From Escherichia coli (GTDB lineage Bacteria; Pseudomonadota; Gammaproteobacteria; Enterobacterales; Enterobacteriaceae): a stretch of DNA of 64,000 nucleotides. The stretch lies in assembly GCF_030384885.1 (NCBI RefSeq), contig NZ_CP128613.1; one strand, written 5' to 3'. The notes below the pieces were generated by a model. The model saw nothing but the letters and a program-made list of their open reading frames with translations. It did no database searches and was not told the DNA's origin. The translations under genes and the position numbers were made by a program. Below are positions 39,206 to 40,937 of this stretch, piece by piece (position 1 is the stretch's first letter; the number at the start of each line of letters is the position of its first letter).

Positions 39206-39399
39206 GTACGGGCGTCCAGCCAGATGAATAAAACGCGCGCAAATATGCGTCATTTTTTGACGTGCATCAAGTTTTTTCACCAGTTTGAGAAAAAATCATC
39301 AAACAGCAACTTGCCCTTATCCATCTTCAGAATGAGTATTATTGCGGATTTTCTTAACCCGTACTATACACATAGGGGCAATGATAAAAGGTGGCAAAA

Positions 39400-39495
39400 A
39401 TGAATGTTTCCAGTAGAACTGTAGTACTGATAAATGTCTTTGCTGCTGTTGGTTTGTTTACTCTTATCTCTATGAGATTTGGCTGGTTTATTTGA
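39400..39495 (+). CDS. yncL: Small membrane protein, 31 aa
   Basis: Hand-translated: MNVSSRTVVLINVFAAVGLFTLISMRFGWFI*, SD aaaggtgg upstream; below the ORF-track length cutoff. Confidence 0.65.
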   Translation: MNVSSRTVVLINVFAAVGLFTLISMRFGWFI

Positions 39496-39517
39496 TGTAG
39501 TGATTTTGCACGCAGCA

Positions 39518-39552
39518 CGTACTGTCAGAGAAATCAGTGCTCTGACAGTACG
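39518..39552. other. Perfect 13-bp inverted repeat (hairpin) 3' of yncL
   Basis: cgtactgtcagag - aaatcagtg - ctctgacagtacg; no clear U-tract on either strand. Confidence 0.5.
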
Positions 39553-39894
39553 CAAGATCATCTCATACTCTCCAGGTTTACAACATTATCCTTAATATTT
39601 ACTTCTTTTTGCTGACATCTACATTGAAATAAGTAGAAAACATCCCCCTCCTATCGTCCTTACAGACAGCTTACTGATTCAAAGGGAACTTTGTTTTCAC
39701 ATTTTTCTATCATCATTACTTTAGACGCGCGGGGTCTATAAATGCTTTATACTTTCAGGGAATAAAGTAAATATAAAAAGATGGCATAAAGTATATGCAT
39801 GGCAGGATGTTTGCAACCTCCTTGAGGACGCTGTCCCATTGAAATTGCAAACCCCGCACTGGTTATCTGCCCATTTATCATGTAAAACAGACAA

Positions 39895-40704
39895 TTATAG
39901 GTCTCTGAATATCTCAGAAAGATTGAATTTTTTATAGTCCCTCTCTTGAATATTTCCATTTGATATCAATCGATTCATCTCTTCAACAAAATAATTTATA
40001 TCATCACATTTGTTATTATCCGGAAGATCTGAGTAATTATAATTCCACCACTTTATTCTCAACAATTCATCAATAATATTTGAATCAAATCTAAATCTGA
40101 TTATTTTTGCAGGAACTCCTGCAACTATGGCATATGGTGGCACATCTTTGGTAACAACGGAATTGGCAGCAATAACAGCACCATCACCTATTGCGATGCC
40201 ACCTTTCAATACAACATCATTTCCTATCCAGACATCGTTTCCTATAATCGGATTTTCAGGTTTGGTAATGAATGGTTTCAATGTCCAGGGCCGTTCGAAC
40301 TCACTCAAGGCAAATTTATCAAATTCACCGTTATAAGTCATCATGTGAGTAGTAAAACGATTCATAGGATGATTTCCACCCATTATTTTTACATTTGATG
40401 CAATACTACAAAATCGTCCTATATGTATATTCCCTGAAAAATGACAAGTTGGAAATGAAAATGCACCTACACTGGAAAAATTTTTTACAGGCATTGTTGA
40501 ATATTCTTCAGCAATAACATTCTCTTCAATTGATATTTTGTCACCTTTTGAGAAAAGAAATAAATTCCTTTCTTTGTAAGACTTCTTCCCTTTATGATTT
40601 AAAAATATTTTATTATCCATGCAAAATTCAAAGTGTTTTTTCGTCCACCTAAAGGTAATGGTTTTATTTTTATCTTCCGTGAATTTATATAACTGTACGT
40701 TCAT
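39895..40704 (-). CDS. Hexapeptide-repeat acetyltransferase of the xenobiotic (XAT; Vat/CatB-like) class, 269 aa, low-GC
   Basis: C-terminal block IGNDVWIGNDVVLKGGIAIGDGAVIAANSVVTKDVPPYAIVAGVPAKIIRFRFDSNIIDELLRIKWWNY closely parallels streptogramin A acetyltransferases; unusual ~100-aa N-terminal extension. Confidence 0.7.
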   Translation of the reverse strand: MNVQLYKFTEDKNKTITFRWTKKHFEFCMDNKIFLNHKGKKSYKERNLFLFSKGDKISIEENVIAEEYSTMPVKNFSSVGAFSFPTCHFSGNIHIGRFCSIASNVKIMGGNHPMNRFTTHMMTYNGEFDKFALSEFERPWTLKPFITKPENPIIGNDVWIGNDVVLKGGIAIGDGAVIAANSVVTKDVPPYAIVAGVPAKIIRFRFDSNIIDELLRIKWWNYNYSDLPDNNKCDDINYFVEEMNRLISNGNIQERDYKKFNLSEIFRDL

Positions 40705-40937
40705 ACTAAAGATATCTACTTTTACTTATAAATTATTAGTTGAATAACGATACTCTAAAGTCTTCTATGAATCAACCATGACAGGATGAAAAATCACCAT
40801 CATACCTTTAGCGCATAATAGTCGTTTAACTTTTCCACTCGTTTTAATGTATTCATTCTTATTAATCGCCAATGACTCAAAACTTCAAACGATAGTGGCC
40901 ATCATATAATTTCATATAACAGCCACTAACATTTAAC

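Follow-up and report, generated by a model that had tools for sequence, protein, structure and literature searches.

Gene content and boundaries of the segment

We analysed a window of 64,000 nucleotides from the Escherichia coli contig NZ_CP128613.1, to which all positions given here refer, and found an AT-rich segment at a locus with the gene order ydcY, ortT (39032-39205, minus strand), yncL (39400..39495, plus strand), an acetyltransferase gene (39895..40704, minus strand) and patD (40938..42362, minus strand). The ortT gene lies beyond yncL in the RefSeq annotation. Placed here from the RefSeq annotation of an identical strain, yncL is a core small-protein gene outside the segment; patD is also a core gene, positioned directly upstream of the acetyltransferase gene and in the same orientation. 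The acetyltransferase coding sequence is an intact open reading frame of 269 amino acids, corresponding to RefSeq WP_001102745.1, which is named "CatB-related O-acetyltransferase". Its GC content is 0.32 versus 0.485 for the whole window, confirming the preliminary description of an intact low-GC acetyltransferase gene between ortT/yncL and patD. Across the AT-rich segment the local GC content ranges from 0.28 to 0.39, with values of 0.50 to 0.57 in the flanks and neighbouring genes, and the 2.2 kb surrounding the gene show 100% identity to the chromosome of E. coli 2013C-4282. The gene stands alone, with no sialic-acid, glycosyltransferase or sugar-pathway gene as its neighbour.

Upon aligning the window with a second carrier, SJ7, and the B strain C43(DE3), we observe that the yncL-patD spacer of carriers is 1346 bp longer than that of C43(DE3), in which, as in K-12 TG1, the spacer is 96 bp long and gene-free; the K-12 interval is thus as short and empty as the preliminary description had supposed. 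The stretch that differs from K-12 spans about 39602-40937 and lies between two 20-nt junction repeats, which were derived from the alignment of filled and empty alleles. The left copy is AACATTATCCTTAATATTTA (39582..39601) and the right copy is AACATTTAACTTAATGTTTA (40928..40947), the latter overlapping the 3' end of patD, with its final codons and its stop codon (40938-40940). Together they form an imperfect direct repeat, with agreement at 16 of the 20 positions, and the empty allele has a single hybrid copy of it. The insert had originally been drawn at 39281-40937, of which about 320 nt on the left, comprising the ortT-yncL spacer, yncL and its hairpin, are core DNA. This hairpin (39518..39552), an inverted repeat with perfect 13-bp arms that folds and is present in all alleles, is found directly between yncL and patD in K-12 and B, and downstream of the acetyltransferase gene in the window.

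RNA folding of the non-coding 3' tail of the segment (39602..39894, minus strand, 293 nt) revealed two hairpins, a long one (about 39801-39859) and a short one (39784-39798) with a U-rich tract (39769-39783) behind it; the short hairpin and the tract look like a terminator. The tail is single-copy and never occurs without the acetyltransferase gene, being found in 1,158 genomes, in all of them at the yncL-patD locus and in none on a true plasmid, and comparison with the Citrobacter loci returned no DNA homology. A remnant gene in the tail was rejected, as it contains short ORFs only and has no homology away from the yncL-patD locus. The 5' region of the acetyltransferase gene (40705..40927, minus strand, 223 nt) was investigated by promoter scan and blastn. 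It carries a weak sigma-70-like site (40759..40732, TTTAGA-16-AATAAT), which is weak evidence because the scan of this region returned fewer sites than in shuffled sequence, and roughly 90 nt 5' of the start codon are kept in Citrobacter, with blastn to two Citrobacter loci reaching about 40795. Directly after the patD stop codon, within the segment, an inverted repeat folds into a hairpin (40885..40936, minus strand) of -25.7 kcal/mol (z = -5.5), and 0 of 200 shuffles fold equally well. This hairpin may serve as a terminator or stabiliser of patD, setting patD apart from the acetyltransferase gene.

Several candidate identities of the segment were examined and rejected. A mobile element as its vehicle is contradicted by the lack of a transposase, of terminal inverted repeats beyond AT-rich chance matches, and of any copy of the segment on true plasmids or phages. 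Integron core sites follow the consensus GTTRRRY, which is fitted by the sense strand right after the patD stop codon, starting GTTAAAT; an integron cassette was rejected because the 3' end lacks an attC-like element and the other junction is without a matching site. A structured RNA was dismissed, since the patD-proximal hairpin gave only a chance match to a microRNA family, scoring 24.9 bits where the gathering score is 100. A defence system was also rejected, with no PADLOC match and a PHROG match to a family of unknown function.

Distribution across E. coli genomes

We found the segment in 1,158 of 5,426 complete E. coli genomes (21%), and the gene is accordingly accessory, not the conserved core gene that the preliminary description had named as one of the outcomes contradicting its reading. 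Among the 1,158 carriers the segment is single-copy and always located at the yncL-patD locus, and the E. coli genome searches never placed it on a true plasmid or phage. In 1,148 of the carriers 80% or more of the segment is retained, and the open reading frame is intact in the great majority of the 1,158. When the carriers are partitioned by allele class, 953 genomes are at least 99% identical to the SJ7 type, 199 are at about 95%, and 6 are of the window type. Carriers include many non-O157 Shiga-toxin strains, and the empty site is observed in K-12 TG1, B, O157:H7, O55:H7 and E2348/69. A look-up of yncL returned no arrangement other than this one, in versions that contain or lack the acetyltransferase gene. 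Annotations of the acetyltransferase gene already exist for thousands of genomes, yet it is uncharacterised, and no publications on it were found via protein accessions or neighbouring gene names; the "catB-related" gene of ST131 and yaiX are different genes.

Fold and catalytic features of the protein

Next, we investigated the fold of the protein. Pfam identifies Hexapep repeats (E = 1.8e-9), and the AlphaFold model, built with 48 homologues in the input, has a pLDDT of 90.4. A Foldseek search with this model returned Vat(D), VatA and CatB as the best matches with a probability of 1.0, in agreement with the earlier assignment to the Vat/XAT-class hexapeptide enzymes, and the protein as modelled has the XAT-class left-handed beta-helix fold. 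The catalytic histidine, whose absence would have contradicted the preliminary reading, is there: H112 aligns to the catalytic His82 of Vat(D) and to the CatB histidine, is positioned on a loop inserted in the beta-helix, and is at least 90% conserved among 48 family members. The WWNY-like tail was also recognised correctly: the protein has the WWNY motif, and none of the 48 members deviates at W219/W220. The model further contains C-terminal helices at residues 208-217 and 236-248. The WW motif is followed by a 12-residue insert that is specific to the family.

The N-terminal extension described initially does exist, although it is shorter than the estimated 100 or so residues. An N-terminal module spans about residues 15-60, and similarity to Vat begins at around residue 60 (Vat residue about 27), resulting in a net extension of about 35-45 residues. 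From these features, the enzyme would be a soluble, presumably trimeric, acetyl-CoA-dependent O-acetyltransferase of the XAT class, with H112 as the general-base histidine on the inserted loop. The acceptor pocket, at the interface between subunits, probably owes its shape to the N-terminal module and the C-terminal insert.

A probable separate family branch with relatives in glycan loci

In a neighbour-joining tree, Vat and CatB split from the remaining family in 200 of 200 bootstraps, and the Enterobacterales proteins form their own subclade, also in 200 of 200. Alignment motifs of the branch comprise an N-terminal strand-helix-strand module, (V/I)E(E/P)Y where Vat and CatB have GxYSYY, HPxxR(F/I) around the catalytic histidine, and the 12 residues inserted behind the WW motif. 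We infer that the E. coli protein belongs to a distinct branch of the XAT class. Using phmmer, we observe that relatives encoded in glycan loci (Brochothrix, 184.5 bits; Campylobacter lari, 163.7; Enterococcus, 162.3; Campylobacter jejuni, 137.7) outscore every solved resistance enzyme (138-185 versus at most 107 bits), with 107 bits for Vat(D), at most 97 for CatB and 83 for ApmA.

The genomic contexts of these relatives involve glycans in several taxa. In C. jejuni and C. lari, the locus has the order cst, neuB, neuC, neuA, acetyltransferase, and the Campylobacter gene occupies the orf11 position of the lipooligosaccharide (LOS) sialylation locus; the C. jejuni protein is equated with Orf11 on the basis of this synteny and not of an alignment to the published Orf11. 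C. jejuni Orf11 is an experimentally characterised sialate 9-O-acetyltransferase (Houliston et al. 2006, as reported in PMC8319020 and PMC3513307), and PMC2174954 likewise covers Orf11 as a sialate O-acetyltransferase. In Brochothrix and Listeria the gene forms an operon with GtfA and GtfB, in the order acetyltransferase, GtfA, GtfB, and in Enterococcus thailandicus the relative lies within a teichoic-acid-type cluster. In Providencia rettgeri prophages, a 55%-identical copy adjoins a GT52 glycosyltransferase between a tail-fibre gene and an integrase, which is the usual site of lysogenic-conversion genes. In Citrobacter, Cedecea, Rahnella and Apirhabdus the homologue stands alone, and neither a glycosyltransferase nor a sugar-pathway gene adjoins it.

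The C. jejuni protein in the orf11 position resembles the E. coli protein along much of its length. The two are 276 and 269 amino acids long, respectively, and share the N-terminal strand-helix module, (I)EEY without the YY of Vat and CatB, HPxxR(I/F) around the catalytic histidine, and WW(K/N)Y, after which both have the 12-residue insert and the C-terminal helices, with 39% identity over residues 66-269. The likeness is weaker at the N-terminus, where the BLAST alignment starts only at residue 45-66, the first 45 or so residues align weakly, and the module is matched only in the multiple alignment. The gene contexts also differ, since orf11 ends a cst-neuBCA block whereas yncL and patD flank the E. 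coli gene. The C. jejuni protein has the same sub-threshold NCBIfam profile for Vat and CatB as the E. coli protein, and the label "CatB-related" therefore predicts no antibiotic substrate.

Comparison with antibiotic-resistance acetyltransferases

We compared the protein with the curated NCBIfam models and found that it scores far under the cut-offs for Vat (NF000311; 126.7 bits versus 300), CatB (NF000490; 104.1 versus 350) and ApmA (NF000084; 81 versus 550), the ApmA-type N-terminal domain also not being detected. The top NCBIfam match was TIGR03308, a phosphonate-cluster hexapeptide transferase, which is likewise below its cut-off (131.9 bits versus 201.65) and limited to the core, at residues 92-228.

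Differences extend to the acceptor site. An acceptor-site tyrosine with a stabilising role towards the acceptor/oxyanion is present in VatA (Y42), Vat(D) (Y37) and ApmA (Y102) (PMC7885111), and Thr70 of the E. coli protein sits where these residues and CatB Y30 align. In CatB, chloramphenicol is hydrogen-bonded by P8, G11, Y30, S32 and H79 (PMC8096840); of these five contacting residues only the histidine (H79) is kept in the E. coli protein, S32 aligning to a gap and the P8/G11 region not being alignable. With Vat(D) and Vat(A), the protein shares the XAT architecture, the catalytic histidine (Vat(D) H82 corresponding to H112), the NDVWIG coil and the WWN motif. Identity to Vat(D) is about 36% across about 170 aligned residues, so that the wording "closely parallel" of the preliminary description was too strong. 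Unlike these enzymes, it has the extra N-terminal module, the C-terminal insert and Thr70 in place of Y37, falls in a separate clade, and is encoded on the chromosome instead of on mobile elements. In structural alignments with CatB2/3/8 and PaXAT, the fold, the catalytic histidine (H79) and the WW motif are shared at 27-33% identity, but the E. coli gene, in contrast to those of the type B chloramphenicol acetyltransferases, is not an integron cassette.

These comparisons bear on the proposal that the gene encodes a cryptic antibiotic- or xenobiotic-modifying XAT enzyme similar to Vat, CatB or ApmA, with the N-terminal module conferring a new specificity. We consider this unlikely. The nearest solved structures are indeed Vat(D), VatA and CatB and the catalytic histidine is conserved, yet the curated cut-offs are missed by a wide distance, the acceptor-site tyrosine is replaced by Thr70, the CatB residues Y30, S32, P8 and G11 are not conserved, and the bootstrap-supported split separates the protein from Vat and CatB. 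Resistance genes are typically standalone, accessory and of foreign GC content, all of which would suit this gene, and some records use the name "antibiotic acetyltransferase"; nevertheless, no copy was found on a true plasmid or phage, and E. coli is intrinsically insensitive to streptogramins. A precedent is ApmA, which retargeted the XAT scaffold to a new drug via an added N-terminal region (PMC7885111), belongs to the XAT class and has a near-equal length (274 aa). Its N-terminal region, of four strands and two helices in 82 residues, is unrelated to that of the E. coli protein by length and fold description.

Selection and history of the locus

We next examined how the gene has evolved. 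Between allele classes differing by 3-6% in DNA, dN/dS is 0.08-0.11, and the acetyltransferase gene is under purifying selection and very probably functional. This result weighs against the gene being a silent relic, namely foreign AT-rich DNA retained by hitch-hiking and without a current function, which we regard as quite improbable. The very low GC content, the weak promoter-like site, the lack of partner genes nearby and the absence of the gene from 79% of genomes would all be compatible with a relic, as would the disrupted or altered copies, which comprise IS1 insertions in at least 4 genomes and one in-frame 18-bp duplication. Against these stand the constraint across allele classes, the open reading frame that is intact in most of the carriers, and the catalytic and structural residues that are kept family-wide.

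Between allele classes, dS is 0.10-0.25 for the acetyltransferase gene and, similarly, 0.17-0.19 for patD, and across nine filled loci the distances of the two genes track one another. Because the acetyltransferase gene has diverged in step with patD, it has been linked to patD since the carrier lineages split, and is an old resident and no recent import. Low GC content is common to the Citrobacter and Cedecea homologues, and a pattern scan limited to a single representative genome for each species yielded no close homologue from the rest of Escherichia; the low GC content and this absence from the other representatives point to an old horizontal origin. The horizontal acquisition suggested by the preliminary description fits these data as an old event.

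The origin of the empty site is the least certain step. Empty alleles hardly vary from one phylogroup to another, whereas filled alleles vary within the same flank, and this leans towards the K-12-type empty site being a younger deletion allele, which may have been spread by recombination. A 10-nt patch (39571-39581) also differs between filled and empty alleles, and the deletion reading leaves it unexplained.

A further and very improbable case is that read-through has made the gene part of the ydcSTUV-patD operon, with a polyamine-related metabolite as the substrate of its product. The gene has the same orientation as patD, starts 233 nt past the patD stop codon, and precedes the ancestral yncL/patD hairpin, and N-acetylation of amines is within the reach of XAT enzymes, as seen in ApmA, but a strong hairpin separates patD from it, the homologues of Citrobacter, Cedecea, Rahnella, Apirhabdus and Providencia are in unrelated contexts, and among the relatives examined none adjoins polyamine genes.

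Proposed function and implications

The best reading, towards which we lean with some reserve, is that the old-resident segment encodes an acetyl-CoA-dependent carbohydrate O-acetyltransferase. By analogy with the glycan-locus relatives, the enzyme would use acetyl-CoA to acetylate a carbohydrate hydroxyl, on either a glycoconjugate or a free sugar, and the acceptor is most likely neither streptogramin A nor chloramphenicol. This reading draws on the context of homologues that are just 35-55% identical, and the known capacity of XAT enzymes to evolve new acceptors, as ApmA did, weighs against it. Both an antibiotic and a sugar substrate had been offered initially; the missed cut-offs, Thr70 and the 200/200 split weaken the former, and the genomic context of the relatives favours the latter, so that sugar O-acetylation is the better supported of the two.

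A wider proposal, which we put forward tentatively and consider rather doubtful as a whole, is that the Enterobacterales subclade represents a standalone glycan or sugar O-acetyltransferase. It would act on a common envelope structure (LPS core, O-antigen or ECA) or on a sugar scavenged from the host, for example sialic acid, altering phage or immune recognition, and would have been kept as a presence/absence polymorphism at one fixed chromosomal site throughout E. coli diversification. Less likely is a variant of this proposal in which the enzyme would inactivate a natural product not recognised so far, in the manner of ApmA.

Overall, the labels "CatB-related" and "antibiotic acetyltransferase", carried by a gene of about a fifth of E. 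coli genomes, invite a wrong resistance call, and the evidence points away from phenicol or streptogramin resistance. If an envelope glycan is acetylated, the surface modification would vary between strains and be encoded away from the usual O-antigen and capsule loci, with a bearing on serology and phage susceptibility; otherwise, the acetyltransferase would be an ordinary accessory gene of a known enzyme class.

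Sequence at the junction of the segment

Immediately to the left of the left-hand junction repeat (39582-39601), we observe a 10-nt patch at 39571-39581, in which six of the ten positions distinguish all filled from all empty alleles. This patch is explained neither by a clean insertion of the segment nor by a clean deletion.

At the other end, within the segment and immediately 3' of the patD stop codon, we find a strong hairpin (40885-40936, minus strand; fold -25.7 kcal/mol, z = -5.5). In K-12, patD is followed by the yncL hairpin, whereas in the window the hairpin at 40885-40936 occupies that place. 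A weak match of the same hairpin to a microRNA family in Rfam is due to chance.

A probably damaged copy and interrupted copies of the acetyltransferase gene

The acetyltransferase allele of strain FDAARGOS_943 (L047:1788-2615) carries an in-frame 18-bp duplication, which adds one hexapeptide such that NDVWIG occurs twice, as well as W219C, a substitution within the otherwise invariant WW motif, and is probably a damaged copy. Furthermore, the gene is interrupted by IS1 in at least four complete genomes, PM7, 10034940-2, S171-1 and cM2a, with the homologous locus represented by genome-search matches H145, H186, H187 and H204.

Surroundings of the homologue in other genera

In Providencia rettgeri prophages (L009-L011), the homologue and a GT52 gene lie in a cargo region, with a tail-fibre gene on one side and an integrase on the other, and, depending on the prophage, these two genes are accompanied by either a retron-like pair (RVT_1 and AAA_21) or DarT/DarG. 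In Cedecea and Rahnella (L007:4154-6810, L012:4032-6783), a co-oriented methyl-accepting chemotaxis protein gene lies approximately 155-180 nt upstream of the homologue; that both genera have this neighbourhood may be a coincidence.

Flanking genes and lineage of the window strain

In some empty-site genomes (L061, L063, L069), the TonB-dependent receptor gene pqqU lies immediately upstream of mnaT, and these genomes lack, at that place, the mcbR-curA genes that the window has. Comparison of window positions 37514-38712 with loci L002 and L003 shows that the annotated length of mnaT is 516 nt for the window strain and 519 nt elsewhere, and that its overlap with ydcZ differs from that elsewhere. 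Across a 2.2-kb query around the locus, only 8 of 5,416 matching records reach at least 99% identity. The patD of the window lineage is 3.7-4.6% divergent from every other allele seen, and the window therefore represents a rare lineage.
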